Numbered from the stretch's first letter, positions 5,346-21,804 are shown. The stretch is DNA of 64,000 bases from Candidatus Poseidoniaceae archaeon (GCA_049438185.1 JBMTJI010000006.1:10859-74858); one strand, 5' to 3'. Made by a program: numbers and translations. The notes: a model not told the origin generated them from the letters alone.

Positions 5346-5988
5346 GTTGAACGCCCTCATCAAGCAGGAAATGACAAATCGCTATTGCATGATGTCCTTG
5401 CAGCCAAGTTGTTCCGAGCGACCTGGCAATGCCTGCATCCACATCTAACGGCTGATCGTCCGAGAGTAAGAAGGCTATCGAATCTTCATTCGGTGTTGAT
5501 TGGATTGGAATTGCGCTTTCTTGTTTCCAGAGACGCTCAGCATCTGCATCGAGTCGTATCAATGTCGAATCCTTCCATTCAGCAATCGTATGGGACAGTT
5601 TACCGCCTCCATCGTAAAGACCCGGCGTACGCTCAACCCAGTGACCAATCGCTGGCAGAGGCTCTCGAATGGCTTTGGCAATCAGTCCAGCAACGCTTCG
5701 CTCCTCAGCATGAAAACCTCGAAGCTCGGAACCAACAAATTTCAATCGACGTTGCGCCCCTGGACCTCCTTGAAGATGGAGGACAACTTCCACATCCTCC
5801 CGTAGCCCATGCGAAGTCAACAAGGCGGACATAACGGCACGAATGAGCACATCCATTCGACCAGCACCTCCTGCAAGGTCGTTCAGGGGTAATTTCCCTT
5901 TGCTCATCGCTCGATGGCCAATGACAGCAAAACGTCGCACATCAATCGCCTCGCTCGATGATGATCCGTAGTGCATCATTGAGGTCAT
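5335..5988 (-). CDS. trmY: tRNA (pseudouridine54-N1)-methyltransferase TrmY (SPOUT family)
   Basis: RFAVIGHRAMSKGKLPLNDLAGGAGRMDVLIRAVMSAL matches the archaeal TrmY/Mja1640-family N-terminus. Start chosen at Met32-36 of the long ORF, which overlaps the CoaBC 3' end by about 40 nt. About 215 aa. Confidence 0.6.
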   Translation of the reverse strand: MTSMMHYGSSSSEAIDVRRFAVIGHRAMSKGKLPLNDLAGGAGRMDVLIRAVMSALLTSHGLREDVEVVLHLQGGPGAQRRLKFVGSELRGFHAEERSVAGLIAKAIREPLPAIGHWVERTPGLYDGGGKLSHTIAEWKDSTLIRLDADAERLWKQESAIPIQSTPNEDSIAFLLSDDQPLDVDAGIARSLGTTWLQGHHAIAICHFLLDEGVQLNL

Positions 5989-7138
5989 CCTGTGTCTCAA
6001 GGACAAAATGACTTCCTTGCTTATCGACAAGGTATCCTCGAGGTTTTGATTGGTCACCAAGATCTTCCAATCGGTTTGCAACTACAGCGGTCATTTCAGA
6101 ATGTTCGATTTGAGCAGTTGCCCGATGAATTAAATCGCGTTGCTTGATTCCAGTTTCTAATTTGAATCCAATTCGTGTTGAACCTCGAACCTTTTCCTTC
6201 AATTCTTGAATGTGTTTTGCACCTTCAACGAGATTGACTTGCAGCGGTCCTTGTTGACTAGCCAACTTTCCTTCAGCAGGTGCTTCAACAACGTAATCAA
6301 GCACAGCAGCGGCATGAACCCATGCTTGAATCTCATCGTTTGCAAGCGCTTTCAGTTCTGAAAGCATTTCATCAGGCTGTTCTGCTTTGATGCAAAGGGG
6401 TAACCATGGTGGCTGGGCAATACTTGTTCTTCCAACAACACATGTCACATCGTGTCCGTATCGGTACAACTCATCTGCAAGAGCGTAACCTGTTGCTCCT
6501 GAGCTAGTGTTCTGCACACCACGTACATCATCGATTGGCGAGTAAGTTCCTCCAAGTGTAATCACGACATTCTTTCGATACGACAATTTTGAATTGATTC
6601 CATGAGCAAACCTGGCAACGATGTGTTCGTGACTCGGTGTCTTTCGCTTTCCTTCTTCTAGGTCGCCCCACATCACATCAATGCCTTCCTCGCGCAAACG
6701 GTCAACGATGTCATCGGTGACTGGATCATCGGCGAGGTCTGCATGCATGCTTGGAACCATCAGTACGTGGGTGTTTCGTGAACGTGCCGCGCTGAGTGCC
6801 ATTAACAGTGGTCCTTGCTGCATGCCATGCAGGTGAGCAGCAATTGTGTTCCGAGTTGCAGGCGCTACAAGAATTGCATCAACATCCTCAAGTTGTTTCA
6901 TGTCACCATCCCAATCGGTGATGACCTGGCATTGGCTTGCCCATTCAATGGCGAGTGGCGTAATGACACGTCGTGCACTTTCCGTCATGATCACCAGCAT
7001 CTCCGCCCCATGCCTTCGCATTTCACGTAGAAGTCGTACCGAATCAACTGCTGCGATTCCACCTGTGACGCCAACAAGTATACGCTTGCCAGCAAGGCTG
7101 GAGCCACGTATTTCTACGTCGGTATCACGGACGCTCAT
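5942..7138 (-). CDS. coaBC: Bifunctional phosphopantothenoylcysteine decarboxylase / phosphopantothenate-cysteine ligase (CoaBC/Dfp)
   Basis: N-terminal flavoprotein domain GKRILVGVTGGIAAVDSVRLLREMRRHGAEMLVIMTESA ... ILVAPATRNTIAAHLHGM. C-terminal CoaB domain (VVITLGGTYSPIDDVRGVQNTSSGATGYALADEL). Start set at MSVRDTDV. Confidence 0.8.
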   Translation of the reverse strand: MSVRDTDVEIRGSSLAGKRILVGVTGGIAAVDSVRLLREMRRHGAEMLVIMTESARRVITPLAIEWASQCQVITDWDGDMKQLEDVDAILVAPATRNTIAAHLHGMQQGPLLMALSAARSRNTHVLMVPSMHADLADDPVTDDIVDRLREEGIDVMWGDLEEGKRKTPSHEHIVARFAHGINSKLSYRKNVVITLGGTYSPIDDVRGVQNTSSGATGYALADELYRYGHDVTCVVGRTSIAQPPWLPLCIKAEQPDEMLSELKALANDEIQAWVHAAAVLDYVVEAPAEGKLASQQGPLQVNLVEGAKHIQELKEKVRGSTRIGFKLETGIKQRDLIHRATAQIEHSEMTAVVANRLEDLGDQSKPRGYLVDKQGSHFVLETQDDLNDALRIIIERGD

Positions 7139-7153
7139 GCCCTTGCGAATGTA

Positions 7154-7858
7154 TTGACCATCAAGACATCTTCGCTGTTCACAAGCCTTCATGAGCGGGT
7201 GATGATTCGACGATGTATGGCAGGGAATCGAGGAGACGATATTGTCCTTGCTGGTTCGGGAGGACAGCGTGCCTCAGCAACGCTTTCAGCCATCTTCGAT
7301 CAAACCCATCGTAGCACATCCCTTATCTTAGCGATTGATAGCCTGATCATCGTTCTGTTAGCATTTGAATTTTCAACAATCGCACAGGTCTATTTCGGAC
7401 GTGGTGCAATACTCATCTGGGCTATACCTTTGTTCATAACGACATCAACATGGTTCTCGTATCGTTCTCGACGAAGTTGGGCATACTGGCCTGCAGCACT
7501 CATCATCGCCTTTGCATCGGTCATTTTCTTCCTGTTCTTCTTGGTCAATTTGTTCGCAGTCATTTCAGGTGCAGCGGGTGGTCTTCTGTTTATGCTCATC
7601 ATGGGTTATGCAGCATACAGTTCATTTCAACGTGTTCGATATCATTTCTCTCCTCTCTATAGACAAGGCTATACAACATTTATTCCAACGCCTGAAGCCG
7701 ATCTCGAGGATGGAGAAATGTTAGCTGCTTGTCCAAGTTGTATGGCAGTTCTCGCCATCCGACCCGATCTTCTCTCGCCTTCGGATTCATGTCCACACTG
7801 CAACAAACCACTTGTGAGTAAGGAACTTGCAAAACGTCATGGTTGGGAAGAGGAATAA
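7154..7858 (+). CDS. Integral membrane protein with C-terminal zinc ribbon (CPSC...CPHC)
   Basis: 4-5 hydrophobic helices followed by CPSCMAVLAIRPDLLSPSDSCPHCNKP. True start may be an internal Met (MIRRCMAG...). No family recognised. Confidence 0.4.
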   Translation: MTIKTSSLFTSLHERVMIRRCMAGNRGDDIVLAGSGGQRASATLSAIFDQTHRSTSLILAIDSLIIVLLAFEFSTIAQVYFGRGAILIWAIPLFITTSTWFSYRSRRSWAYWPAALIIAFASVIFFLFFLVNLFAVISGAAGGLLFMLIMGYAAYSSFQRVRYHFSPLYRQGYTTFIPTPEADLEDGEMLAACPSCMAVLAIRPDLLSPSDSCPHCNKPLVSKELAKRHGWEEE

Positions 7859-7861
7859 GCC

Positions 7862-9391
7862 TCAACTCGAACAAGAAAGCATCGAGCATCCAACACGATG
7901 TCGTGCCCATTCAGGTCGTTTCTGGAACCATTGTTCCTCATGTTCCATTTGTTCCTTGTATGGCTTCTTGAGTAATTCGTATAGTGATTCAGCAATCGAA
8001 TAATCCCCTTTCTCTGCTGCATCGATAGCAAGTTGTGCCATCCAGTTACGGAGGACAAACTTTGGATTTGAAGCGAGCATTGCTTCTCGATTTGGTTGAC
8101 CGTTTGTTCGATCCCACCATTTTTGCAACCACTGATTCCATTCATCACGTGGAATGGTTGTTGGATCATAAAATGCAAACGCGAGGTGTTCGATGACTGG
8201 TTCTTCAAGCGTTGAGAGTAATCTGAAGAAAATAGTCATGTCCGTTTCGACCAACTGAAGGTTTGCGGTGAGTTCCTTAACAAGAAGTTCATCACCTTCC
8301 AAGAATTCATCGAAACCAAGTTTCCTCGACCACATGCTATTGTTTGCGCCCTCATATGCGCTGTAATAAGCGTCAAGACATTCGTACAATCGCTCCGGCT
8401 CTTCCATAAGAGGGGAAATCGATTCCAACAAACGAGCGAAATTCCAGGCACCTATCTGTGCCTGTTGGCCAAATCTGTACCTTCCTGTTCGTGCGTCAGT
8501 TGTATTTGGAGTCCAATTTGGATTAAAATCTTCAATCCAACCGTACGGACCATAATCGATGGTCAACCCATGGATGGACATGTTGTCGGTGTTCATGACA
8601 CCATGGACAAATCCGACCCGCATCCATTCCGATATCATGTGGGCGGTTTCTTCACCAACGTGCTTCAACCAATTCACCAAACCTTCATCACTGGTGGTCG
8701 TGTGATTTGGGAAGTGTTGTTTGACTGAAAAATCTACCAAGGTTCGCAGCGTGCTGACATCACCATTCATTGAATGGATTTGGTAGGAACCAAAACGAAG
8801 AAAACTCGGAGCGATTCGACAGACGATGGCTCCTTGTTCCGGAGCAGGATTCCCATCGTACATGACATCTCGAACCACATCCTCTCCAGTTGTGACAAGC
8901 GAGAGTGCCCGCGTGGTTGGGATTCCAAGATGATGCATTGCTTCGCTGCACAAAAACTCACGAATCGAGGATCGCAGTACAGCTTTGCCATCTGCAAATC
9001 GCGAGTATGGTGTTATCCCCGGTCCTTTCAATTGCAACTCAAGACGTTGCTTTCCAGTGTCCACCTCTCCTAATGTAATTGCACGTCCATCTCCAAGTTG
9101 ATTGGCCCAATTACCGAATTGATGTCCACCATACCGTTGTGCATAAGGATCCATTCCTTCAACGATTCGATTCCCGCCAAGAATGTCCGATGCATCAGGA
9201 TTGACGTTCAATTCCGTCGCCATCTCTTTGGACCACAGACGAAGAACTGGATCTGGAACCTGAGTAGGTTGAACACGAGACCAACATGCATGAGGAACTT
9301 GCCTTGGCTTTCCACCAATTTCTTGATCGCCAGGTGTACCCTGCAAAAAGTGATTGAACCACTTCAGTTCCGTAAACGAATCGGTTCCCAC
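7862..9391 (-). CDS. selO: Protein adenylyltransferase SelO (YdiU/UPF0061 family)
   Basis: YGGHQFGNWANQLGDGRAITLGEV...LKGPGITPYSRFADGKAVLRSSIREFLCSEAMHHLGIPTTRALSLV is the hallmark SelO/YdiU core. 509 aa. Confidence 0.75.
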   Translation of the reverse strand: MGTDSFTELKWFNHFLQGTPGDQEIGGKPRQVPHACWSRVQPTQVPDPVLRLWSKEMATELNVNPDASDILGGNRIVEGMDPYAQRYGGHQFGNWANQLGDGRAITLGEVDTGKQRLELQLKGPGITPYSRFADGKAVLRSSIREFLCSEAMHHLGIPTTRALSLVTTGEDVVRDVMYDGNPAPEQGAIVCRIAPSFLRFGSYQIHSMNGDVSTLRTLVDFSVKQHFPNHTTTSDEGLVNWLKHVGEETAHMISEWMRVGFVHGVMNTDNMSIHGLTIDYGPYGWIEDFNPNWTPNTTDARTGRYRFGQQAQIGAWNFARLLESISPLMEEPERLYECLDAYYSAYEGANNSMWSRKLGFDEFLEGDELLVKELTANLQLVETDMTIFFRLLSTLEEPVIEHLAFAFYDPTTIPRDEWNQWLQKWWDRTNGQPNREAMLASNPKFVLRNWMAQLAIDAAEKGDYSIAESLYELLKKPYKEQMEHEEQWFQKRPEWARHRVGCSMLSCSS

Positions 9392-9426
9392 ATGTGTTTC
9401 AGAAGGCGATGCCTATTGAACTTGAT

Positions 9427-11589
9427 TCAAATCCTAGTTGTTTGATTCTTTCTGAATACAACCAGCATGGCTAGGGTCATGACAACGATTGTTGACAACA
9501 CCCCAACCCCTGGAGTCGATTCACTCTCTTGTTTTGTTTGATGCTCTTCAATAGGGACGGTTTTGACCGCTTCTGTATAGACCCCATCCAAACACGTACC
9601 GTCACCAACGATTAATTCCGATTGATTAGAGGATAACACAACGGCCGTACTCGGATCGGAATTCAAATCCTCTTTCTCGTATAATGTAGTCTCAATGGAA
9701 TAACATCCACGGTTCATAGACAGCATCAAATCGTATTGTTCACCACTCGATTGAATGTCTTCCCACCACCATATTCCATTCCATTCACCACTACTGATGT
9801 TCTTGGCAACGATAATGGCAGTGTAGACCGTACCTTGGGCAAGATCCTTCACTTCGGATTGGTACGCATACGTCCATGATGCATCCAAATCATCAGGTGT
9901 GTTTGTAGGGCGGAGATGGTTCAATTGAATCTCTTCATCAACGTCGATAACAGGCGGATTGTATTCTCTCCATAACCAAACCATGTTGCTTTCATGGCGA
10001 CGAGTGTCCTCTCCAACGAGGACACTACCATCATCAAGGACAACGAGATTATCTGGTCCAGCAAGGTTGTTCATGTCACATTGGTATTGATTTGAGGAGA
10101 TGTATGGTCCTCCGATGATGGCGGGGTGAATCCTGTTAACATTCCACAATTCGTTCATCGTCATCTGGTAGACGATCCCGCAAAGGTTGTCTGAAACATC
10201 GATATCACCTTGTCCGTCGGTCATTGCATTGTCGATACTGGACATGGCGAGGTAAAGATTGTCCGGAGCGTTTTGATTAAAACCGACCCCTTCCATTTTG
10301 TTCCACTCATCAGTAGCTCCTATTGCTGCAGCCGCTTTACGGGTTTCAAGGAAAGCTACACGGTCATCCAAGGCATAACCAATGGTCCCATCGTTGTTCA
10401 AATCTTGATTTAGATAATCCTCTGCCCAATTGTTGATTTCTTCATCGGTAATGTACGAGTTTTCTCCTTGAATATAATCAGCAGTTGTTATGCCGTCATA
10501 ATCATCAATCCAACCTTGGATTTCATCGTTTGATGAAGATCCAAGTTCCAGCCATTCGACGTCAAACCCAGTTGAAGCAGAATTGTATGTGGAATCTTGT
10601 GTAACTTTTGCAGAATAAAGCGTACCTTCACTCAAATCACCTGCTGTATCTGCCTCGAATTTGAAGAAGACCGTTTCATAGCCATCATCGGTCAGATAGA
10701 CCGTCTTGTTATCGGGCATGACCAAAGCATTCTCATGTGAAAAACGACCCATAGTAAGGTGTCGTATCAGTTCAGGCGTTGTCGATGTTGCCTGTTCCAT
10801 CTCGATGATGTAACCATAATCGTATGGATTTGGATAATGCCCAAGATACTGCTCAAGGCGTAGTTGGTCTGAGTGATATCGATATCCATCGTTGTTCCAA
10901 TCCTCTGTATCATCAAAGTACAATTCTTCAGAGAACAATGGGGTACTCCAAGGGCTGACACTTCCAAAACAAAGAACCCAAGCTCCATTGATGTCTGAAA
11001 GATTCAACATTTGCTTTGAGAGAACATCCCATTCGCTTGATGATGGATTCCATTCGAGTTCGACTTGGCTGATACCCGCTGGACGATCCTCCCACGCAGT
11101 GTAGAGATATCCGGTGGTTCCATCGGAATTCGTTGGAATAAATGCATTGTAATCGGGTTTTTGACTCAACAAAATCTGTTGGCCGTCGTGTGCTGAGTAA
11201 ATTCCTCCAGCGATTGTACCGTCATCCATTGAATCTCCTGCTTGCAGGAGAACCTGGTAGTCGCCATAACCGGTTCGAATACCATGCCAAATGTCTGAGG
11301 CACTGCTCGATGATGAAAGCGAGGGAACTTCTTCAGGAAGGTTATTCCAGTCCACACCATTGATCACGCCAATTGTGGCATCATAATTGTCCGGATCAGG
11401 ATGCATTGCGTTCACAAAGAAGCGCCCGTTTTCATCGACATACATACCGGTTGCTTCTGCTTCAGGAGGGAGCATAACGATACGAATCATCTGATCTTCC
11501 TCTTCACTTTCTGCGACAACAAGGGGTGAAGAGAACAAACAGACCATCATGCCGACACAAAACAAGGTGAGTAGAGGTCGCATTCGCAT
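9427..11589 (-). CDS. Secreted PhoX-like (COG3211/DUF839) putative phosphatase with C-terminal TM anchor
   Basis: N-terminal signal peptide (MRMRPLLTLFCVGMMVCLFSSPLVVAES). Beta-propeller-like repeats. AGPDNLVVLDDGSVLVGEDT resembles the PhoX C-terminal motif. The extreme C-terminus is ESESTPGVGVLSTIVVMTLAMLVVFRKNQTTRI (sorting-signal-like). Confidence 0.45.
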   Translation of the reverse strand: MRMRPLLTLFCVGMMVCLFSSPLVVAESEEEDQMIRIVMLPPEAEATGMYVDENGRFFVNAMHPDPDNYDATIGVINGVDWNNLPEEVPSLSSSSSASDIWHGIRTGYGDYQVLLQAGDSMDDGTIAGGIYSAHDGQQILLSQKPDYNAFIPTNSDGTTGYLYTAWEDRPAGISQVELEWNPSSSEWDVLSKQMLNLSDINGAWVLCFGSVSPWSTPLFSEELYFDDTEDWNNDGYRYHSDQLRLEQYLGHYPNPYDYGYIIEMEQATSTTPELIRHLTMGRFSHENALVMPDNKTVYLTDDGYETVFFKFEADTAGDLSEGTLYSAKVTQDSTYNSASTGFDVEWLELGSSSNDEIQGWIDDYDGITTADYIQGENSYITDEEINNWAEDYLNQDLNNDGTIGYALDDRVAFLETRKAAAAIGATDEWNKMEGVGFNQNAPDNLYLAMSSIDNAMTDGQGDIDVSDNLCGIVYQMTMNELWNVNRIHPAIIGGPYISSNQYQCDMNNLAGPDNLVVLDDGSVLVGEDTRRHESNMVWLWREYNPPVIDVDEEIQLNHLRPTNTPDDLDASWTYAYQSEVKDLAQGTVYTAIIVAKNISSGEWNGIWWWEDIQSSGEQYDLMLSMNRGCYSIETTLYEKEDLNSDPSTAVVLSSNQSELIVGDGTCLDGVYTEAVKTVPIEEHQTKQESESTPGVGVLSTIVVMTLAMLVVFRKNQTTRI

Positions 11590-11658
11590 GTTGACAACTC
11601 GAACAGGCCTTGCAAAAAGATTCCCTTTCGACCCTTAGATTGGCGAGAGATTTTCGCT

Positions 11659-12366
11659 CTAGTCATGAATCCATTTTTGAACAAGGAATGGGAGAACCTC
11701 TCCTGCCTTCCCCTGAATAAATTCATCAAAAAAGTACACGTTCTCGGGTGGATCGAGATTGACGCCAATGGTATGGGCTCCATGATTTCGTGCCATATGA
11801 AGAAAATTCGCTGCAGGATAGACATTCCCACTTGTTCCAATCGCCACGAACACATCACATTCCGAGAGCGCCTTTTCAATTTCTGGCATCTGCATAGGCA
11901 TCTCATTGAACCAAACGATGTGGGGGCGCAAACGTCCATCACACTGCCTACAATAGAGGAATGCGTCCAAGAGATGTTGGTCCTCCATCAGCGTCTCAAC
12001 AAGCTGACAATCTTCACAACGAAGTTTTGCAAGTTCTCCATGCATGTGAATGAGATTCTTTGAACCAGCACGTTCGTGTAGATCATCCACATTTTGCGTG
12101 ACTAAAAGGAAGTTTTCCAAGTGGTTTTCCAGTTCTTCGAGTGCCAAATGCCCTTGATTTGGTTCAACGTTCAATAGTTGCCGACGTCGTTGCTGATAAA
12201 AATTCCAAACGAGTTCTGGATTCGCTCTCCAACCTTCTGGTGTTGCAACCTCTTCGATTCGATGGTTCTCCCACAATCCGTCCGAATCTCGAAATGTTCG
12301 AATCCCTGACTCGGCACTGATTCCAGCACCAGTCAAGATCACAACTCTGGATTGTTTCGTAATCAT
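11659..12366 (-). CDS. cobB: NAD-dependent protein deacylase, Sir2/CobB family
   Basis: VVILTGAGISAESGIRTFRDSDGLWENH, Zn tetrad CEDC...CRQCDG, HxxGEL region present. Start set at the internal Met (MITKQSRVV). The longer ORF would overlap the upstream gene by 265 nt. Confidence 0.8.
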   Translation of the reverse strand: MITKQSRVVILTGAGISAESGIRTFRDSDGLWENHRIEEVATPEGWRANPELVWNFYQQRRRQLLNVEPNQGHLALEELENHLENFLLVTQNVDDLHERAGSKNLIHMHGELAKLRCEDCQLVETLMEDQHLLDAFLYCRQCDGRLRPHIVWFNEMPMQMPEIEKALSECDVFVAIGTSGNVYPAANFLHMARNHGAHTIGVNLDPPENVYFFDEFIQGKAGEVLPFLVQKWIHD

Positions 12367-12373
12367 GCTATCA

Positions 12374-13078
12374 TCAGTCTGATTTTTTGTGTTCAAATGA
12401 AAAACCATCAAAATCAGTTTGATACACAGGGACTGCGTCAGGATCTTCATCAAAAGCCGGAGGAATGTTCTGCGATTGTTGGGCTTGAGACTGTGCAACA
12501 TTATGTTGCTGATTTGGTTGTTCTGTGGAAGGCGGGATGTATTGCTGGATTGTCGTTTGGTTGGGTTGATAGATGGTTCCATCAGGTTGCTGGAACACCA
12601 CCATTTGTGGAGCCTTTCGCCCAATTGAGAATCCAACAATCAAAAGAATAATTCCCAAGAGGCAACAAAACCCTCCACCACAGAATGCAAATACTGGGCC
12701 GAAGAGGTCATCTGCATCAACGATGACTACATCTCCATCCGCCACGATGTTGTAACTACCAGACACATAGACCTCGATATCCCCGACGTAAGTGTAGCCA
12801 TTAACATCACTCGACTCATCGCAATACGGAATGAAGTATTCATACACGTCATCGGTTACTGAAACGGAATAACTGTAGCAATCGACCTCGCCTTTTGCAT
12901 AGACTTCAAGCCAGCTCGATGAACCATCGAAATTGAAGACCGTACCGTCGGTTTCCGTATCATGCAGAATGTTATCGCTGTTAGGCTCGTACGAATCCAT
13001 CACGACAAGTGAGTAGCCCAAACTGAACAGGGACACCAGCGTTAGTACTCCACCAAAAATGGCTAGCCCTTTGTTCAT
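12374..13078 (-). CDS. Bitopic/bi-helical membrane protein with Cys-containing ectodomain and Q/P-rich tail (hypothetical)
   Basis: N-terminal signal-anchor helix, acidic ~130-aa domain with 4 Cys, second TM (CGGGFCCLLGIILLIVGFSIG), Gln/Pro-rich C-terminal tail. 9-nt gap to the upstream actin-like gene. Confidence 0.45.
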   Translation of the reverse strand: MNKGLAIFGGVLTLVSLFSLGYSLVVMDSYEPNSDNILHDTETDGTVFNFDGSSSWLEVYAKGEVDCYSYSVSVTDDVYEYFIPYCDESSDVNGYTYVGDIEVYVSGSYNIVADGDVVIVDADDLFGPVFAFCGGGFCCLLGIILLIVGFSIGRKAPQMVVFQQPDGTIYQPNQTTIQQYIPPSTEQPNQQHNVAQSQAQQSQNIPPAFDEDPDAVPVYQTDFDGFSFEHKKSD

Positions 13079-13087
13079 TTGAACAAC

Positions 13088-14113
13088 TCAGCGAGATGCA
13101 AGGGTAAGGTTCTTCCACATGTCTTCTGGAACTTCCATAGCCAAGCGAAGACCACCCATTGCACCGAGTCGAACAGGGTCATCAACAACGTGAACGTTAA
13201 CATCGCCCATATCAGAGAGTCGACGCTCGATAAGTGCTCCAAGTCCACGGATACCGGATCCGCCACCAGCGAGAACCATGTTTCGTCGGAACTGGTCGTG
13301 GTACTCTGGGTTGGAGTCTGCAATAAGCTGCTTCACATTCTCAACGATTGGATCAACAATCGACTCACAAGCTCGCTGAATGCAATCCGTGATATCGAGA
13401 TTCATTGCCTTACCTTCAATCGAGAAGTCAACCATAACTGGGTCATCCGGAGTGGATGTGGAGACGAAGGAGTACTGTTCCTTCCATCGTCGAGCCATGT
13501 CTTTGGTGATTTGAGCACCGTTGTACTTGGATTGAACTTCTTTGATGATTTGAGCATCAACATAGTCACCAGCGTATCCAGTGTGCATTTGGTCACCTGG
13601 ACCAGGGATTGTACCGTAAACACGGCAAAGATCCGTAGTTCCTGCACCGATGTCGATGACCAGTGTGTGCTCGATCATGTCAAGAGCGTAAGCAACAGCA
13701 AACGGCTCAGAGATAATCATAGCAGCATTAACGCTTCCTGCAGCGGCATCGAAGATAGCGGTCTTGTCGACGTGGCTGGCTTCTGCAGGTGCGCCGATAA
13801 CGGCGACAACACGGTCGTGTTCTTCTGGGTCTGCTAGACCAATCAGGTGGGTAATGAAGTGAGCGATGAATTGGCGGTCTTCAACAGTATCCTTGATGAC
13901 ACCGAGTTCGAGAGGACGGAAAAGGTTCAGTGCTAGCCTGTTCTTCAACGCATCCTCGCCGAAGAGAACATCTCGCTTGAGGAAGTTACGAGCAATTGGA
14001 TCCTTTGGAGTACCAATCACAGTGAGCTCTTCTTCTTCGTGGTTCCCTGAGGAGACCATTACCGAACGAAACGTTCCCAAATCAATTCCAATATACAATA
14101 CATCTTCTGCCAT
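13088..14113 (-). CDS. Actin-fold ATPase, MreB/Ta0583-like archaeal actin homologue
   Basis: Phosphate-1 YIGIDLGT, phosphate-2 LVIDIGAGTTD, adenosine motif MVLAGGGSGIRGL. 341 aa. Not eukaryote-like (Asgard-type) actin. Confidence 0.7.
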   Translation of the reverse strand: MAEDVLYIGIDLGTFRSVMVSSGNHEEEELTVIGTPKDPIARNFLKRDVLFGEDALKNRLALNLFRPLELGVIKDTVEDRQFIAHFITHLIGLADPEEHDRVVAVIGAPAEASHVDKTAIFDAAAGSVNAAMIISEPFAVAYALDMIEHTLVIDIGAGTTDLCRVYGTIPGPGDQMHTGYAGDYVDAQIIKEVQSKYNGAQITKDMARRWKEQYSFVSTSTPDDPVMVDFSIEGKAMNLDITDCIQRACESIVDPIVENVKQLIADSNPEYHDQFRRNMVLAGGGSGIRGLGALIERRLSDMGDVNVHVVDDPVRLGAMGGLRLAMEVPEDMWKNLTLASR

Positions 14114-14221
14114 AGCGTTCGCCAGTTCTACGGAACACCGTCCACTTTATGAAGCATCCCTCGCTCACGTTCGCCATTTTTTGTTGAAAATATACAACAA
14201 ATAAATTCTATAGAACATCAA

Positions 14222-15238
14222 TTAAAGCCAACTTTCACAAGGTTGACAATACCAAGCCGAGTACTCAGGATAGAGTTCTGCCATCTGGTTGCAATTTGGA
14301 CATTCCTTGAGTGCATTACCCCCGAAGATTTCCTGAACGAGCGCAACATGCTGTTCTTCAGTGACCCCCAATTGTTGGCGCATAACCCACATCATCTGAT
14401 CTTCGCTTGGCGAAATGATACCATCTTCGAGAACCAGAGCGATGACGTTGCGGTAATCATCCAACACATTCACATCTCGGAAGTCGAGTATAACACCACC
14501 CTTCTCTGCGACAATATCTTGGCCGCCTGGATCGTCAACAAACAGAACAAGCGATTCGGGTTTCAACTTATCATCTCGTAATTCGAACGAAATTCGATTT
14601 CCTTCGAGATTGGCATAGACAAGTCGCGATGAGCGGTTGATGACACTGGTAATCGAGCGTGCCGTATCTTCGCTATTGCGACCGCGTTTCCATCCTGTCG
14701 GGCTTCGCTCATTGTAGGCATAGAACTCGGTACCAATACCTGGATATTCAAGACGAATTTCTTCACCACCATCGAAACCATTTGAGACAATGGTCAGTGC
14801 AGCAACTTCGGTTGAAACGAGGTTATCGTCGTCATCAAAACTAATCATGAGTGGCTTTCGATCTTCAGAAGCTGCGTTGAAATGTCCTTGCATCCCACTC
14901 ATCCACTTATCTTCCAATCGCTTGAGTGATTGTTCTTGTTCTTCGGAAAGGTTTGAATTAACTCCTAAGACGCCTTTGAGGTCGCCACGTTCCATTTCTG
15001 CCTTGAATTCTTGAATTAATTCAGAATCACGTCGATGGTTTGGAGGAGGGCCTCTGACCTTTCGAGAAACATGGGATGGATCCGCCCACTCGTAAGAACA
15101 ACGGCTGCAAGAAAGATAACCTTCCATTGTGGACGGCTGACTTTCTCCACCGCATCGAGCGCAATCTCCTTCTTCTTTGATCGAAAGATTGTCAGCCGCC
15201 TCTTTCCTTCCTTTCCGAATGCCACCAAACCCAGCCAT
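14222..15238 (-). CDS. Hypothetical protein with N- and C-terminal zinc ribbons
   Basis: CARCGG...CSRCSYEW near the N-terminus and CPNCNQMAELYPEYSAWYCQPCESWL at the C-terminus. Acidic central domain. Same strand as, and immediately upstream of, the actin homologue. Confidence 0.5.
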   Translation of the reverse strand: MAGFGGIRKGRKEAADNLSIKEEGDCARCGGESQPSTMEGYLSCSRCSYEWADPSHVSRKVRGPPPNHRRDSELIQEFKAEMERGDLKGVLGVNSNLSEEQEQSLKRLEDKWMSGMQGHFNAASEDRKPLMISFDDDDNLVSTEVAALTIVSNGFDGGEEIRLEYPGIGTEFYAYNERSPTGWKRGRNSEDTARSITSVINRSSRLVYANLEGNRISFELRDDKLKPESLVLFVDDPGGQDIVAEKGGVILDFRDVNVLDDYRNVIALVLEDGIISPSEDQMMWVMRQQLGVTEEQHVALVQEIFGGNALKECPNCNQMAELYPEYSAWYCQPCESWL

Positions 15239-15285
15239 GGATTTGCCACAATACAGACTTTCTATGAAGGCTTCTATCCGAAACT

Positions 15286-16092
15286 TTAGGATTTTGAGAG
15301 TACGGCTTTCAGACCATAATGCATCATGCCATCCTGACCGTAGAGCCTTCTGAACACAAAATCCACACGTTCATCGATCTCCAGTTTTCCTGATTCGTCA
15401 TCTGCCATCATAAAGACACCCTTAGGACCTTCATCAAATTCGACAAGCACGGTCGCAACACCATCCAAAATTGGTGCTCGGTTTGAAAATTCGGAAGGTG
15501 CACCAGCGGCACTGAGACGCGTCCACGTGAGAATTGTAGCCGTTTCAGTCAGTTGCATCCCTTCGGTATCGATACGCTGCCCCATAGCATTGAGTTGCCG
15601 TGGAGGCCAAAGCATTCGCTCACCATCAATTTGGGCTTTCAAACCCAGTCGTGATGGAACCGAGATCGTGTGCTGCGCTTGGGAAACGTAAGCTCCTTGA
15701 CTGACACCTTCAACCTCAATTCTCCATTGATCGTTGAGTTCCGATTGCATGGTTTTGTCGTATTCTTGTGTTTCAAATTTAGGCCAATGTGGCACATCTT
15801 TTGATGGACTAACTGCGACACAGAATGCTTCCTTGTCAGTATGTAAGTACATGCCTGCATTCTCGTCAACAATCCAAGAGGTACTTGCCTCGATGATCGC
15901 TTGCACACTCACGCTTGGCGGATATTCGAGATGCTCCTCGAAACCATTCAGATTGATGGATTCTGCTGGTATCTCCTTCAACAGGGCAATGAGAACAGTC
16001 AATCTGTCGCCGTCTGGTCCCGCCCAGTTTGGACCGTATTGGCTACAAGCCATGTGTTGACTGCCATTGGAAATGATTTGAATTGGCATCAT
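15286..16092 (-). CDS. DUF35-like OB-fold protein (thiolase/HMGCS-associated scaffold family) with N-terminal extension and no Zn ribbon
   Basis: C-terminal GMQLTETATILTWTRLS...PILDGVATVLVEFDEGPKGVFMMADDE...VDFVFRRL resembles the DUF35 OB-fold. The Met at 16092 gives an ATGA start/stop overlap with the thiolase gene. No CxxC pairs. Confidence 0.5.
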   Translation of the reverse strand: MMPIQIISNGSQHMACSQYGPNWAGPDGDRLTVLIALLKEIPAESINLNGFEEHLEYPPSVSVQAIIEASTSWIVDENAGMYLHTDKEAFCVAVSPSKDVPHWPKFETQEYDKTMQSELNDQWRIEVEGVSQGAYVSQAQHTISVPSRLGLKAQIDGERMLWPPRQLNAMGQRIDTEGMQLTETATILTWTRLSAAGAPSEFSNRAPILDGVATVLVEFDEGPKGVFMMADDESGKLEIDERVDFVFRRLYGQDGMMHYGLKAVLSKS

Positions 16093-17258
16093 CTCTCTCT
16101 CCCGAAAACGTGGACTGCGCATGTCGCACCCGAACCACCGACATTGTGTGTCAATCCGATTTCTGCGCCACGTACCTGCCTCTCAGGCTCGACTTGGTGT
16201 CGAAGTTGCTTGAACAATTCAACGGCTTGTCCTGTTCCTGTAGCTCCAAGAGGGTGCCCTTTTGATTTGAGTCCTCCACTGGCATTGATGGTGACGCTTC
16301 CTTCATTCCTTCGACCTTCACCTTCTCGAGCGAACGTTCCTCCAAGTCCACGACCTGCGAATCCGAGATCTTCTGTGGCCAACACTTCAGCGATTGTGAA
16401 ACAATCATGAACTTCGGCCAGGTCTACATCAGATGCAGAGATGCCCGCCGACTTGTAGGCCTTTGCTGCGGCGGATTGCGTCGCTCTCAGTTGCGTGATG
16501 CTTGGCCTGTCATGGAGAGCCAAATGGTCGGAACCCGCACCAGATCCTTTGACCCAAACAGGTGTATCGGTGAACTTGTGTGCTAAGTGATCCGCAACCA
16601 GAATTACAGCAGATGCTCCATCGGACGTTGGGCAGCAGTCATAGAGCGTGAGTGGGTCTGCAACCATAAATCCTGATTGGGCTTTCTCAAACGAGACTTG
16701 TTTCCGAAGATGGGCAACTTCGTTCTCAAAACCGTGCATGTGGTTCTTAACGGAAACATGCACCAAGTCATCGTGTGTTGAATCAAATTCGTGAAAGTAT
16801 CTACGAGCTGTAAGCGCATAGGTTCCAGGGAAGGTCAAGCCTGCAAGACGTTCCCATTCTGTATCACCCGACACTCCGAGCCAGTAGCGTTTCCTTGAGG
16901 CAGACAAGTCGTTCATTTTCTCAATTCCACCTGCAACCACGACGTCGGCTTGACCACTCTTGATGGCCATCCAAGCGTCTCGTAGAGCAAAACCAGACGA
17001 AGCGCAAGCATTCTCGACACGACGGACGCTTACGCCTTCCATACCGGAATGTTCGGTGAGGAGGGCAGCCGTATTCCCTAACTGCGATCCTCCAAAAGCA
17101 ATGCTTCCAATGAAGGCTTCCTCGACATCGGGTGAATCGAACCCGTTATCGACACTTTGAATGGCCTTCTGGATTGCTTCTGCCCACATTCCTTTCAATC
17201 CGAGAGGATGGTTGCCGAATTTCGTTTGGCCTGCACCGACCATTGCCACATCGACCAT
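16089..17258 (-). CDS. Acetyl-CoA C-acetyltransferase (thiolase)
   Basis: MVDVAMVGAGQTKFG start typical of archaeal thiolases. Active-site regions ENACASSG and GxGxG. C-terminal NVGGSGATCAVHVF. The 105-aa upstream extension of the ORF is rejected. Confidence 0.8.
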   Translation of the reverse strand: MVDVAMVGAGQTKFGNHPLGLKGMWAEAIQKAIQSVDNGFDSPDVEEAFIGSIAFGGSQLGNTAALLTEHSGMEGVSVRRVENACASSGFALRDAWMAIKSGQADVVVAGGIEKMNDLSASRKRYWLGVSGDTEWERLAGLTFPGTYALTARRYFHEFDSTHDDLVHVSVKNHMHGFENEVAHLRKQVSFEKAQSGFMVADPLTLYDCCPTSDGASAVILVADHLAHKFTDTPVWVKGSGAGSDHLALHDRPSITQLRATQSAAAKAYKSAGISASDVDLAEVHDCFTIAEVLATEDLGFAGRGLGGTFAREGEGRRNEGSVTINASGGLKSKGHPLGATGTGQAVELFKQLRHQVEPERQVRGAEIGLTHNVGGSGATCAVHVFGRER

Positions 17259-17342
17259 GTTCTCTCCAGATGAATCAAGCATTTGATAGAGTCGGTCAAA
17301 ACACCCGCAGGGTTCATGAATGGGTGTCGATAGGCCACGAAC

Positions 17343-18032
17343 ATGCTGCGCCAATGTAGAAAGCACGGTCACTTTAGTGGCACCAACTGTCCTGTCTGTA
17401 ACGAGGAAGGAAAATTCATCATGAGCGACCGAGAAGCAGGTAGCCTCGGTCGAATGCTTGCTCTTGTTTTGCGACACGCACCGGAGAAGTTCAATGTTGA
17501 AATGGACATCAACGGATGGGTAAGCACACGAGAACTTGCTGACTCCATTTCTGGTCAGCGACGCCACTATCATTGGCTACGTGGATGGCACTTTGAAGCG
17601 ATTGCCAATGCCGATGAAAAGGGTCGATATCAGGTCGAAGGTGAAATGATTCGAGCCACTTATGGTCATTCCATTGAAATCGAACTTGACTTGCCAACCG
17701 ATGAAATTCCAGAGGCATTGTATTGGCCATGTGAACCAAATGAGGCCGATGCTATCGTTCAACTTGGTATCACCTCAGGTACTCGAAACCACATCCACCT
17801 TTCCAAGACAATCGTTAACGCACTCGAAGCAGGTCACGTTCGAATCGATCGTCCTGCCATTATTGAAGTCGATACCGTACGTGCAGTTGCTGATGGACAC
17901 ACGATCTATCGTGCAGGGAAGACTGTCTTCTTGACGGACGAAGTTCCTCCGGAGTATCTCTATCGCGTCGGCGATGACGATCCGATGATTGTTGATACCG
18001 TTGCACGCTGGACTCGAGAAGAAGAAGAGTGA
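17343..18032 (+). CDS. kptA: RNA 2'-phosphotransferase Tpt1/KptA
   Basis: LGRMLALVLRHAPEKFNVEMDINGWVSTREL matches the Tpt1 N-terminal region. Alternative start at 17421 (MSDREAG) would remove a Cys/His-rich 26-aa leader. Confidence 0.7.
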   Translation: MLRQCRKHGHFSGTNCPVCNEEGKFIMSDREAGSLGRMLALVLRHAPEKFNVEMDINGWVSTRELADSISGQRRHYHWLRGWHFEAIANADEKGRYQVEGEMIRATYGHSIEIELDLPTDEIPEALYWPCEPNEADAIVQLGITSGTRNHIHLSKTIVNALEAGHVRIDRPAIIEVDTVRAVADGHTIYRAGKTVFLTDEVPPEYLYRVGDDDPMIVDTVARWTREEEE

Positions 18033-18389
18033 TCACTTCGTTGCTCCGCAAGCCGGACAGAAGTCGAGATCGTTCTCGAGAAGTTTACCACATGTTGAGC
18101 AGGTAGATGATCCGAGTAGAATCGCTTGTCCTTTCGTAGCAGGTGGAGCAGGACGTTCCTGCTGAACCTTTGGGTCGACCAAGAGAAGTGGGTCAACGCC
18201 TTGATTTTGCAACTCTTTGTATCGGTTTGCGAAGATAATTGCTTCTTGAATGGATGATTCTAGTTGCAACAGGCGAATGTTTCGCTCAGCTTTGTCAGCA
18301 ATCTCATTGGCTGTCTCAACCTCTGTTTGGAGGTGTCGAAGGAAGGAATCCAGGCTTGGGCCTTCATCGCTCATGGCATCCTCAAACAA
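18033..18389 (-). CDS. Coiled-coil protein with C-terminal zinc ribbon (hypothetical)
   Basis: 118 aa. Helical N-terminus. CSTCGKLLENDLDFCPACG at the C-terminus. Confidence 0.35.
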   Translation of the reverse strand: MFEDAMSDEGPSLDSFLRHLQTEVETANEIADKAERNIRLLQLESSIQEAIIFANRYKELQNQGVDPLLLVDPKVQQERPAPPATKGQAILLGSSTCSTCGKLLENDLDFCPACGATK

Positions 18390-18452
18390 CGCAGACTATT
18401 GAATCCTGTGTTTTGTAGGCATACTCATGAAGGTCAGATTCTTGGCCATAGC

Positions 18453-19268
18453 ATGGTGAGGCGCATTATCATCAAATTTGGAGGTGCGCTCATCACCAAA
18501 AAAAATGAAGAATGCGTCGCAAACATCGAAATCATTCGGAATCTATGCTCCACCGTCCACTCCATAACCGAGCAAGGCGTTCACGTCATTATTGTGCATG
18601 GTGCGGGTTCGTTTGGCCACTTGAAGGCAAAACGATGGCGTCTTCATGAAGGTCATTTGCCTGGATTTGTAGTAGAAAATGACGCATGTTCATCCCAAAC
18701 CGAAGCCGTTGAACATGTCCGAAAAGATATGTTGGAACTCAACTCAATCATCGTTTCGGAATTAGACCGTGTTGGGTTGCATACACAATCGCATCCACCT
18801 CATGAATGGGCAACAAATCTTGGTCCAACGTTCAACGGTTCACTTGAGAGGTTTTCATTATCAAAACCAAACCATGTGCACCTATCATTTGGTGATGTAG
18901 TGGATGTCGATGGAGAGGATCAATTTGGAATTCTTTCTGGCGATGATCTCGTAGCTAGGCTTTCACTCGAACTTCCAGGGATTGAATCGCTTATCTTCGC
19001 AATGGGTGGCGTCGATGGGCTACTCAAGGTACCACCTCACCTCGCAGATGAACATGATTTGATCGATCACTGGTCACCAGATATTGCGTATGAAGGGCTG
19101 CATCAATCAGACATCGATGTAACAGGAGGTATTGGCTTGAAAATCAATCGAGGTCATTTGGTGGCTCAATCAGGGGTCGGAGTCTATCTCATTAATGGAG
19201 AACATCCAACGAGAATTGCAGCTCTCGTTCGAGGCGATCCTTGGAGAGGTACGACGATTTTACCTTGA
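18453..19268 (+). CDS. ipk: Isopentenyl phosphate kinase (amino-acid kinase fold)
   Basis: MVRRIIIKFGGALITKK...IIVHGAGSFGH. Glycine-rich kinase motifs. About 271 aa. Confidence 0.7.
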   Translation: MVRRIIIKFGGALITKKNEECVANIEIIRNLCSTVHSITEQGVHVIIVHGAGSFGHLKAKRWRLHEGHLPGFVVENDACSSQTEAVEHVRKDMLELNSIIVSELDRVGLHTQSHPPHEWATNLGPTFNGSLERFSLSKPNHVHLSFGDVVDVDGEDQFGILSGDDLVARLSLELPGIESLIFAMGGVDGLLKVPPHLADEHDLIDHWSPDIAYEGLHQSDIDVTGGIGLKINRGHLVAQSGVGVYLINGEHPTRIAALVRGDPWRGTTILP

Positions 19269-19278
19269 GGTGTGAATC

Positions 19279-19521
19279 GTGGAATTTGGATTGTATTCAC
19301 TCGGTATCGTTGTTGGTTTTGCAATTGTTCGGTGGGCTACTGAGAACACAACATTCCATCTACGAACAAATTCGATTTGGCTCCATCATTGGATCATTGC
19401 TCTCCTTGTGATGGTTCCAATGTTCTATTTTCAGATTGAATCTTCATTGCTTTGGGGTGGTATGACAGGAATGGCTCTTGAAGGTCTAGGCCGCAAGAAC
19501 TGGTCGATTCGACGTAAGTAG
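19279..19521 (+). CDS. Small two-helix membrane protein (hypothetical)
   Basis: 80 aa, two hydrophobic helices. Fills the gap between IPK and IDI-GGPPS with 10- and 17-nt spacers. Confidence 0.3.
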   Translation: MEFGLYSLGIVVGFAIVRWATENTTFHLRTNSIWLHHWIIALLVMVPMFYFQIESSLLWGGMTGMALEGLGRKNWSIRRK

Positions 19522-19538
19522 GGTCAATTCCCTGTCGT

Positions 19539-21344
19539 TTGAGGCGAACTCTCTATGTAGCGCCTGCCGAGAGAAAGTTTGGGGCTCATATGACGAACTA
19601 TGCGAGCGGGGACGTTCCTGAGGCAGATATCGATTCCGATGCCACGGAATTTTTGGCTGCACAATCCTCTGATTCGACCCAAGCCAGCATGATGGCAGAA
19701 GCGGTTTTGCAAGTTGATGAGAACGATGTTGTTGTCGGACCAATGAGCAAAGCGGACAGCCACTTCCAATCTGGCTCGCTTCATCGTGCATTTAGTGTTC
19801 TGTTGTTCAATTCAGAAGGACGTTTGCTTCTGCAACAACGAGCACATGACAAGATTACATTCCCAAGCGTTTGGGCAAACTCGTGTTGCTCACATCCTCT
19901 TGCAAGTAAGGACGAAATGGATGAATTAAACGCTCGTGGGGTCAAGATTGCAGCCATTCGTAAACTCGAACAGGAACTTGGTATTTCACCCGATTCGGTT
20001 GACATCAACGATTTTCACTTCATTACGAAAATGCGTTATTCTGCCCGAATGAATGCGGATTGGATTGAACGTGAAATCGATCATATTTTGATGATACAAG
20101 CTGATGTCGACCTCAATCCAAATCCGAATGAGGTGGCCGCAATCAAGTGGGTGAATGCTGAAGAATTGGATGCGATGTTGGTCGATCTGGAAAGTGATGA
20201 AATCATCGCCCCTTGGTTCCGTTGCATTGCTGCACGCTTGATGAACGAGGAGTGGTGGGAAGCAATCGGCAATCAAACTGCTTGTGAGGCACTCCAAGAT
20301 GGATTGATTCATGATATGGGCGATGTAACACATATGTTACCCAATGCAGAAGGTGCTGACTTGCTTACGAGCATCAACGAAGTCAAACCGTTCATTGAAC
20401 AGCGTATCATTGAGAGTTTGACAGCATCACGACACGAACGTTTGGCTAATGCGATGATGCATTTGATTCATGGCGGAGGAAAGCGAATGCGGGCAACACT
20501 TCCATGGCTGGTTGGCCGTGCAGTAGGTGACACGCATTCTGGTCTACTCGATATTGGTGCGGCCATTGAAACAATCCACAACTTTACGCTGGTACATGAT
20601 GATATCATGGACGATGATGAGATTCGTCGTGGTAGAAACGCTGTGCATATCGAATACGATATGCCGACGGCCATCAACGCAGGAGATGCAATGCTTGCTA
20701 TTGCTTTTGAACGCTTGGTCATGTCAGCAAACATTGAACTTCAGGACATTCCATCGCTTGTCAATCGAATAGCATGGATGGTGCGACGCGTTTCTGAAGG
20801 ACAACAGTTGGACATTGAATTTGAAACAAGGGATCGTGTTTCAGAAGAAGAATACTTAGAGATGATTGAAGGAAAAACAGCAGTCATGTTCCAGATTTGT
20901 GCAGAACTTGGTGCACGGGTTGCAGGTGCTGATGAAGAAGTCGTCCAATGTCTCGCCGAATGGGGTCTCTCCGTCGGTCTTTGTTTCCAGTTGATGGACG
21001 ATCTCATTGATGTGCTCTCAGACTCAGCCACACTTGGTAAACCCACGGGTTCGGATGTTGCTCAAGGGAAGCAAACGCTGATGGTCATTCATGCACTTTC
21101 GCAACCAGATTCGGATACAAAATCACGTCTGCTTTCCGTACTCGGAACGTGTGAGGATGCAACAGAATCGATGATTCAAGATGGAATTGCTGCCCTCGAT
21201 GAACTCGGTTCAATCGCTTATGCTCGTGCAAAGGCCAACGAATATCATCAACGTGCACATGCTTGCTTAGACCGTTTACCGGATGGACCAGCAATGATGG
21301 CATTGCGGGAATTAACTGACCTTCAACTTAAGCGTCTGAGTTGA
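19539..21344 (+). CDS. Fusion protein: type-1 isopentenyl-diphosphate isomerase (Nudix fold) + (E)-polyprenyl (GGPP/FPP) synthase
   Basis: N-terminal half has the IDI1 signature WANSCCSHPL and the Glu-rich Nudix-like segment. C-terminal half has FARM LVHDDIMDDDEIRRG and SARM FQLMDDLID. 601 aa. Alternative start at 19590. Confidence 0.8.
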   Translation: MRRTLYVAPAERKFGAHMTNYASGDVPEADIDSDATEFLAAQSSDSTQASMMAEAVLQVDENDVVVGPMSKADSHFQSGSLHRAFSVLLFNSEGRLLLQQRAHDKITFPSVWANSCCSHPLASKDEMDELNARGVKIAAIRKLEQELGISPDSVDINDFHFITKMRYSARMNADWIEREIDHILMIQADVDLNPNPNEVAAIKWVNAEELDAMLVDLESDEIIAPWFRCIAARLMNEEWWEAIGNQTACEALQDGLIHDMGDVTHMLPNAEGADLLTSINEVKPFIEQRIIESLTASRHERLANAMMHLIHGGGKRMRATLPWLVGRAVGDTHSGLLDIGAAIETIHNFTLVHDDIMDDDEIRRGRNAVHIEYDMPTAINAGDAMLAIAFERLVMSANIELQDIPSLVNRIAWMVRRVSEGQQLDIEFETRDRVSEEEYLEMIEGKTAVMFQICAELGARVAGADEEVVQCLAEWGLSVGLCFQLMDDLIDVLSDSATLGKPTGSDVAQGKQTLMVIHALSQPDSDTKSRLLSVLGTCEDATESMIQDGIAALDELGSIAYARAKANEYHQRAHACLDRLPDGPAMMALRELTDLQLKRLS

Positions 21345-21804
21345 TCCTTACTTGTTCTCCCTCTTGGATGATGCCTTCCACGAGAACTCGCGCATACCAA
21401 CGCGTCTGTCCAGGATACTTCTTATCAGAGAGTTGATTGAAATCACCACCTGTAAAAGAATCTTGAATGGTCTTGCATGGTGAAGCAGCCATCGTAATCT
21501 CGAGTTGTACGTTTTCAAATGAAATCTGAACACCTGGATAAAGTGCTTCCTGTGGGACGTTCAAAAGGAGATTTTCACCTGTTGAACCCCCAGTTATTGG
21601 ATGGCCAAGTGATTGCAAATATTCGATCGTTTCAGAACTGATCAAACATACTGCTTTTTCAGTGCCACCATGGTGTTTCGTATCACGAATAACCTCGTTT
21701 CGAATGCCAAGTGTTGTAACATCAAGAAACTCAACAGGTGGTTTGGGTACACCACCCTTCGTTGTAGCAAACAGGCCTGCAATGGATCCTGAAACCATGC
21801 TCAA
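21328..21804 (-). CDS. MOSC-domain protein (YiiM-like)
   Basis: HHGGTEKAVCL motif and beta-barrel-like sequence, 158 aa. Overlaps the aEF-2 3' end by 4 nt. Confidence 0.6.
   Translation of the reverse strand: MSMVSGSIAGLFATTKGGVPKPPVEFLDVTTLGIRNEVIRDTKHHGGTEKAVCLISSETIEYLQSLGHPITGGSTGENLLLNVPQEALYPGVQISFENVQLEITMAASPCKTIQDSFTGGDFNQLSDKKYPGQTRWYARVLVEGIIQEGEQVRINSDA

Follow-up and report, generated by a model that had tools for sequence, protein, structure and literature searches.

A zinc-ribbon protein gene adjacent to a MamK-like actin gene in the surveyed loci of Poseidoniales

Which of the genes that lie beside an archaeal actin gene are likely to serve the actin? The question is raised by a stretch of 64,000 nucleotides from a Candidatus Poseidoniaceae archaeon (GCA_049438185.1, JBMTJI010000006.1:10859-74858; the whole stretch is called the window here). 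In it, the gene for an actin-fold ATPase is accompanied by genes for a double zinc-ribbon protein (ZnR), a membrane protein with two transmembrane segments (TM) and a Sir2 deacylase. An earlier note on this DNA had read the four as one dedicated cytoskeletal module. The four open reading frames (ORFs) were all present on the minus strand with the features described there:

14222-15238, minus strand: ZnR, double zinc-ribbon protein of 338 amino acids (aa); ORF with no Pfam family
13088-14113, minus strand: actin-fold ATPase of 341 aa, with the motifs IGIDLGT, DIGAGTTD and LAGGGSGIRGL; matches in Pfam, PDB and NCBIfam
12374-13078, minus strand: TM, two-transmembrane-segment membrane protein of 234 aa; ORF, with a homologue set and a predicted structure
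11659-12366, minus strand: Sir2, CobB-type class III NAD-dependent deacylase of 235 aa counted from its ATG; PF02146 and NF001753

Their co-directionality weighs little, because the four are part of a longer run of eight genes on the same strand, from 17573 down to 7862 (thiolase, DUF35-like OB-fold protein, ZnR, actin, TM, Sir2, PhoX and SelO). Read from the sequence, the intergenic gaps were 9 nt between actin and TM and 7 nt between TM and Sir2, as had been noted, and 108 nt rather than 109 nt between ZnR and actin. We propose that the real unit is a Poseidoniales-specific pair, ZnR followed by a MamK-family actin, with ZnR as the partner of the actin; our probability for this reading is roughly 0.55.

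Conservation of the ZnR-actin junction

The homologues of all the locus proteins came from metagenome-assembled genomes (MAGs) of Candidatus Poseidoniales (Marine Group II, MGII) and from marine metagenomes. With actin as the bait, 510 stretches with a relative were obtained from species-representative genomes, and the best 80 of the 510 were used and searched by tblastn with the window proteins. ZnR was found directly upstream of actin in all of these loci that had upstream DNA. With ZnR as the bait, a scan that started from the most divergent ZnR sequences collected 80 metagenome loci, whose ZnR proteins were 51-99% identical to that of the window. Actin directly followed ZnR in all 72 loci that had room for it; the other eight loci ended too early. 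The pair was kept as well in seven more distant loci, including MGIIb and a Thalassarchaeaceae MAG, where the gene order was thiolase, a 336-342-aa protein, actin, a convergent 145-193-aa protein and CoaBC; the 336-342-aa protein is a ZnR homologue (54-57% identity). When the loci were pooled, ZnR and actin were adjacent in 163, separated in none and not judgeable in 10. Both genes were full-length in 148 loci (137 distinct protein pairs), and the spacer between them measured 58-157 nt. The Zn-ribbon protein is therefore a conserved neighbour of the actin with either bait, which supports its place in the module that the earlier note had supposed, whereas TM and Sir2, included in the same supposition, were beside the actin in only one sub-clade.

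The genes outside the pair were variable. Upstream of ZnR lay a DUF35-like OB-fold gene (76 loci), a 375-aa thiolase gene (48 loci) or Tpt1, either on the opposite strand (11 loci) or on the same strand (6 loci). In the actin-bait loci, the gene downstream of actin was the window-type TM in 24, TM4ZnR, a multi-transmembrane protein with a C-terminal Zn ribbon, in 23, a convergent transaldolase in 11, a peroxiredoxin-like gene in 8 and a gene for a 244-aa protein in 7, the others being singletons; TM4ZnR was directly downstream of actin in 63 of the pooled loci. Against at least six kinds of downstream neighbour of actin and four kinds of upstream neighbour of ZnR, the pair was constant. An inversion of the block of Tpt1, thiolase, the OB-fold gene, TM4ZnR and CoaBC was detected in six loci of one lineage (L115, L123, L139, L143, L146 and L158), in which the last four of these genes are now on the opposite side; its breakpoints flank ZnR-actin, leaving the pair intact and giving the same-strand Tpt1 arrangement upstream of ZnR. 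Of all the junctions in the region, that between ZnR and actin alone stayed unbroken throughout (0 of 163 broken).

TM4ZnR has no Pfam family, carries a C-terminal CxxC...CxxC and lies tail-to-tail with actin across MGIIa and MGIIb. It was considered as an actin partner and rejected, because in the inverted loci it travels with CoaBC rather than with actin.

The spacer between the two genes and the sequence before ZnR contained the following elements:

14114-14221, minus strand: ZnR-actin spacer of 108 nt, with T-rich tracts, a palindrome, and promoter-like and Shine-Dalgarno-like elements
15261-15269, minus strand: promoter-like element CTTCATAGA, some 30 nt upstream of the ATG of ZnR
14146-14154, minus strand: promoter-like element CTTCATAAA, at -40 to the actin ATG
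14206-14215: palindrome TTCTATAGAA, in the spacer just past the ZnR stop, 8 nt after it

The sequence CTTCATA[AG]A was conserved across the MGIIa loci at two places, some 30 nt ahead of the ZnR ATG (at -29/-30 in most) and some 40 nt ahead of that of actin; MGIIb loci carried GTTGA[AT]AT at both sites instead. A GGCGA/GGTGA Shine-Dalgarno-like element was located near -10 of actin. Other genes of the window have like elements at -35 to -42 with a GGTGA-like Shine-Dalgarno sequence behind them, and we therefore read the elements as the ordinary promoter of this lineage. CTTCATARA as a specific regulator shared by ZnR and actin was rejected on the same observation. From these motifs, ZnR and actin each appear to have their own promoter-like element, and the pair appears to be co-located rather than a strict operon. 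A strong independent promoter in this gap had been named beforehand as a point against co-regulation; part of this was seen, in that the spacer holds a conserved promoter-like element, which is of the generic type. A scan with bacterial models, which are not applicable to archaea, gave 6 promoters compared to 4.7 in shuffled sequence and 7 terminators compared to 3.6.

Several observations weigh against a functional pair. The wider region is syntenic across the order, including Tpt1, thiolase, CoaBC and isopentenyl-phosphate kinase (which we take the amino-acid-kinase-family gene near the pair to encode), and some of the ZnR-actin adjacency could therefore be inherited gene order. All the sampled genomes belong to one order, so the counts represent few independent evolutionary events. 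ZnR and actin appear to have separate promoters of generic type and may therefore not be co-transcribed, and no known actin partner is homologous to ZnR, whose folds are generic. Inherited gene order might even be the whole explanation, ZnR and actin being unrelated housekeeping genes in a slowly rearranging region rich in isoprenoid and coenzyme A (CoA) genes. Such an origin would agree with the neighbourhood of Tpt1, thiolase, ZnR, actin, TM4ZnR, CoaBC and ProRS, which is broadly kept in MGIIa and MGIIb, and with the eight-gene co-directional run, in addition to the separate promoter-like elements and the single order sampled. However, every other junction in this neighbourhood was broken somewhere, by the upstream and downstream replacements or by the inversion, and ZnR occurs only where actin occurs. 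We consider inherited order as the sole cause unlikely, although it is the main rival of the pair and deserves to be kept in mind.

The actin and the zinc-ribbon protein

Across Poseidoniales, the actin was 76-100% identical. Its top match in the PDB was MamK (5LJW/5LJV/5JYG, E 1e-75); residues 2-336 of the actin aligned with residues 8-341 of MamK over the full length, with 39% identity over 337 residues, and DLGT, SEPF, DIGAGTTD and AGGGS were kept between the actin and the solved MamK. The phosphate-1, phosphate-2 and adenosine motifs and the catalytic Glu (SEPF) were intact, and an active ATPase is therefore to be expected. The best NCBIfam model was also MamK (NF040964), with 359.5 bits, which is under its curated cut-off of 400. 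BeeR (8R2N) matched with E 6e-43 in the PDB, and the NCBIfam BeeR model gave 216 bits compared to a cut-off of 530. MreB structures (1JCE and others) matched only with E 2e-15, and the NCBIfam MreB models failed (95 bits vs 293, and 85 vs 366), while the broad Pfam family PF06723 was passed at 95.7 bits. Pfam Salactin matched at 58.5 bits, over its cut-off; the NCBIfam salactin equivalog gave 66 bits compared to 400, the Volactin Pfam score was under its cut-off, and PF21522, the archaeal MreB-like C-terminal domain, scored 21.9 bits with a cut-off of 27.8. Among the 15 PDB chains listed at E<=0.001 (MamK, BeeR, MreB and actins), no chain was named Ta0583/Thermoplasma or crenactin. No mreC, mreD, rodZ or cell-wall elongation genes were present in any locus examined, and no mam or magnetosome genes were among the neighbours examined in the window (5942-24008). 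Judged by these comparisons, the protein is a MamK-branch actin in a non-magnetotactic archaeon, neither MreB-type nor Ta0583-like, and the 'MreB/Ta0583-like' label first given to it does not fit: its nearest characterised relative is MamK.

Some gene callers put the start of the actin four codons upstream (345 aa: P0001, L168-L172); there is no ATG there in the window (14113-14125). Three viral contigs (L173, from IMG/VR; L174 and L175) carry genes for MamK-like actins that share 37-43% identity with the window actin. In L173, the actin gene (5001-6044) is directly before that of the terminase large subunit (Terminase_6N), with no ZnR homologue upstream. The Poseidoniales actin locus was also recovered with 90-99% identity under Rhodobiaceae, Salipiger bermudensis and Verrucomicrobiales MAG names (L003, L028 and L062), probably through mis-binning.

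ZnR has a CxxC-x14-CxxC zinc ribbon at each terminus, as the earlier note had described, at residues 26-47 (C26/C29/C44/C47) and 313-334 (C313/C316/C331/C334), and all eight cysteines were invariant among homologues. The homologue set comprised 277 sequences. An exhaustive hidden Markov model (HMM) search of 1.84 billion cluster representatives yielded one full-length ZnR cluster (50% identity) and fragments. Because this was the only full-length cluster, the family appears by sequence to be restricted to Poseidoniales. Pfam and NCBIfam contained no family for ZnR, the single match being a sub-threshold one to the L37ae ribbon; fold searches of the PDB gave generic domain likenesses and nothing significant for the whole protein, and the weak distant HMM matches spanned only residues ~250-338. 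None of these searches placed ZnR in a clear unrelated family, which had been expected to weaken the case for it.

The helical hairpin of ZnR that contains DGIISPSEDQ (~255-305) is a TerB/ENT-like unit that is repeated in unrelated proteins (P0381-P0403). The repeats in those distant proteins are often fused to AsnC-type helix-turn-helix domains or to protein kinases.

The AlphaFold (AF2) model of ZnR had a predicted local distance difference test score (pLDDT) of 71.7 and a predicted template modelling score (pTM) of 0.37. It runs from the N-terminal ribbon through two long helices (69-117), an alpha/beta domain (146-251) and the helical hairpin (256-308) to the C-terminal ribbon. Residues 118-143 were the best conserved block of the protein (mean conservation 0.84, 137 sequences), with pLDDT <50. 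In the N-terminal peptide, R8, G10, R11, N17 and L18 were invariant in an alignment of 24 sequences, and this peptide was of low confidence in the model. Residues 1-22 and 118-143 may be contact elements, because they are conserved yet apparently disordered, as partner-binding segments typically are.

From its homology, the actin would be an ATP-dependent filament former like MamK. ZnR would be dedicated to it as a partner that connects the filament to a cargo or site and acts as adaptor, nucleator or regulator. The invariant adjacency and the analogy with actin-adaptor gene pairs suggest that the partnership is a physical one. The likeliest contacts of ZnR would be the N-terminal peptide 1-22 and residues 118-143, and the two terminal Zn ribbons may be binding or dimerisation modules.

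A different role for the two proteins would be DNA segregation of the ParMRC kind, in which the actin moves DNA, ZnR is a DNA-binding adaptor acting through its ribbons, and a nearby site is the centromere. Zn ribbons often bind nucleic acids. The palindrome between the two genes was conserved in MGIIa spacers, and Salactin, a related actin of archaea, has an effect on DNA partitioning (PMC10746226). However, repeat searches of 11400-15600 revealed no iterated centromere-like repeats in or around the pair, and the palindrome is single and was absent from MGIIb spacers. Its sequence, TTCTATAGA(A), was found at three sites in the window (14206-14215, 28224-28233 and 39609-39618; ~0.13 expected), of which the other two are unrelated to the pair and one lies where two convergent genes end; the palindrome may be associated with a terminator or serve as a protein-binding element. 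ZnR is a soluble, acidic protein (pI 4.66), and its gene is upstream of the actin gene, whereas the adaptor gene is downstream in par loci. We regard a segregation system as very improbable.

The insertion behind actin in one clade

Beyond Sir2, the window continues with the following genes:

9427-11589, minus strand: PhoX-like phosphatase (Pfam)
7862-9391, minus strand: SelO (Pfam)
7154-7858, plus strand: TM4ZnR, multi-transmembrane protein with a C-terminal Zn ribbon, convergent to actin; conserved neighbour
5942-7192, minus strand: CoaBC, beyond TM4ZnR (neighbourhood comparison)

TM, Sir2, PhoX and SelO (7862-13078) are a clade-specific insertion between actin and its ancestral convergent neighbour TM4ZnR, since TM4ZnR and CoaBC sit just beyond SelO in the window; TM4ZnR marks the far edge of the insertion. 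Among the actin-bait loci, TM and Sir2 were found only in L001-L027, the closest relatives of the window, and PhoX and SelO were rarer still. The TM family comprised 91 homologues, which were confined to one Poseidoniaceae sub-clade. TM was present in 32 of the 134 judgeable loci and, where present, was always directly downstream of actin. When TM homologues were used as the bait, actin, TM, Sir2 and a PhoX-sized gene followed one another without exception (the last was PhoX by Pfam in 2/3 look-ups). L008 had no TM and L016 had no Sir2, indicating independent loss or rearrangement. Within the clade, actin, TM and Sir2 are probably one transcript, because gaps of 9 and 7 nt are too short to hold a promoter.

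TM has hydrophobic segments at ~3-28 and ~123-152, which are two long helices in the AlphaFold model. Between them is an ectodomain with a confident beta-sandwich (37-121) and conserved Cys67 and Cys86. The tail (157-234) was disordered in the model, consists of 38% Q/P/N and carries a conserved C-terminal DGFSFEH; the cytoplasmic N-terminus was also conserved. No Pfam or NCBIfam family and no structural relative was found for TM. Because its disordered cytoplasmic tail ends in a conserved motif, TM is a plausible tether, and a reasonable local candidate for attaching the filament in its clade. The membrane anchor that the earlier note had proposed retains this much, with the gene directly after actin and the C-terminal motif conserved, but it is a matter of one sub-clade and not of the actin in general.

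Sir2 was a clear member of its family, with 175.8 bits for PF02146 (cut-off 24, E 1e-51) and 254.2 bits for NF001753 (cut-off 243), and its sequence contains Zn-binding CxxC pairs and a YxxR motif. PADLOC defence models gave no match for Sir2, TM or ZnR. Only position ties Sir2 to actin. The deacylase, once suggested as a regulator of the filament, belongs to the clade-specific insertion and was lost or rearranged independently (L008, L016), and we do not retain it as a general partner.

These data bear on the four-gene module that was initially envisaged, with a filament, a Zn-ribbon nucleator, a membrane anchor and a deacylase regulator. The order ZnR, actin, TM and Sir2 is stable within the window's clade, with its short 9-nt and 7-nt gaps, and the cytoplasmic end motif of TM is conserved, both of which such a module would explain. 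However, most Poseidoniales have neither TM nor Sir2 beside actin, the two arrived in an insertion that also carried PhoX and SelO, each is missing independently from one locus, and Sir2 is an ordinary CobB-type deacylase. A dedicated module of four genes would hold at most within one clade, the conserved core being ZnR-actin, and we give it little credence.

For the ZnR-actin pair, the insertion would be a local addition. In the window's sub-clade only, TM and the CobB-type sirtuin, followed by PhoX and SelO, were inserted behind actin, and TM may tether the filament to the membrane. Taken further, the locus might encode an undescribed two-component cytoskeleton, in which ZnR controls the assembly of the MamK-family filament or its attachment to cargo, and in which the actin transcript of one clade has gained a dedicated bitopic tether and maybe a sirtuin regulator as well. 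This fuller picture is tentative, and we would put the odds somewhat against it.

The surroundings of the pair in the window (5942-21344) are rich in isoprenoid-lipid and CoA genes, including the thiolase, the DUF35-like protein, a NUDIX-polyprenyl synthase fusion and CoaBC. The same stretch also encodes Tpt1 and a small DUF7575 Zn-ribbon protein. An Rfam scan of the whole window gave 0 matches.

Significance and comparison with known systems

In the surface ocean, few archaea are as abundant as the Poseidoniales. To our knowledge, almost nothing is known of the cell biology of MGII, because none of its members is in pure culture. In the literature searched, neither a Poseidoniales actin nor the ZnR-actin pair was described, in agreement with the earlier impression that the arrangement was undescribed; what would be new is a partner of another type for an actin of the MamK branch. 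A near-universal, highly conserved actin and an invariant, order-specific neighbour offer a concrete system to express and study, and both proteins are soluble, of ~37 kDa each, and suited to reconstitution. If the partnership is real, archaea would join the MamK branch, so far represented by magnetosomes and BeeR tubes, and would bring to it a new kind of partner. Accessory proteins of archaeal actins, a short list that at present holds the arcadins, would also gain one more case. It would be a mistake to study TM or the sirtuin as partners of the actin in general. The pair, whose interaction is suggested by analogy, deserves attention as a way into the cell biology of an abundant group that is uncultured.

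MamK of Magnetospirillum, which assembles with ATP into double-stranded, non-staggered filaments, is the nearest characterised relative of the actin and is similar over the full length, with the same nucleotide motifs and catalytic Glu. The window actin differs in its score below the curated 400-bit cut-off, its archaeal host and the lack of magnetosome genes nearby. The partners of MamK include MamJ, MamY and McaA/B, and ZnR as a Zn-ribbon neighbour is unlike them in general description, a comparison made without their sequences. Gene pairs of an actin and an adaptor include ParM-ParR, AlfA-AlfB, crenactin-arcadins and MamK-MamJ. In these, an actin-family ATPase is encoded beside a small or medium-sized lineage-specific partner, as with ZnR, but ZnR is unrelated to those partners in sequence or fold, lies upstream with its own promoter-like element and is not accompanied by centromere-like repeats. 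Compared to type II ParMRC, the partner is unrelated to ParR, upstream and acidic. Compared to crenactin-arcadin, neither ZnR nor TM has a Pfam or NCBIfam family, and the 15 PDB chains listed for the actin included none named crenactin. Among CobB/class III sirtuins, the window Sir2 is a normal member, and only its position behind actin, in one clade, is unusual.

The structure 8R2N is that of BeeR, a three-stranded tubular actin from Verrucomicrobiota (PMC11929497). Like the window actin, BeeR is a MamK relative in non-magnetotactic organisms with an unknown cellular function. It is marked by a disordered N-terminal domain (PMC11929497), whereas the window actin has none and starts at the actin fold (MAEDVLYIGIDLG). 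The haloarchaeal Salactin and Volactin are, like the window actin, archaeal actin-fold proteins in the MreB/MamK neighbourhood. The nearest family of Salactin is MamK, and its synteny is poorly conserved (PMC10746226), in contrast to the actin described here, which has an invariant neighbour.

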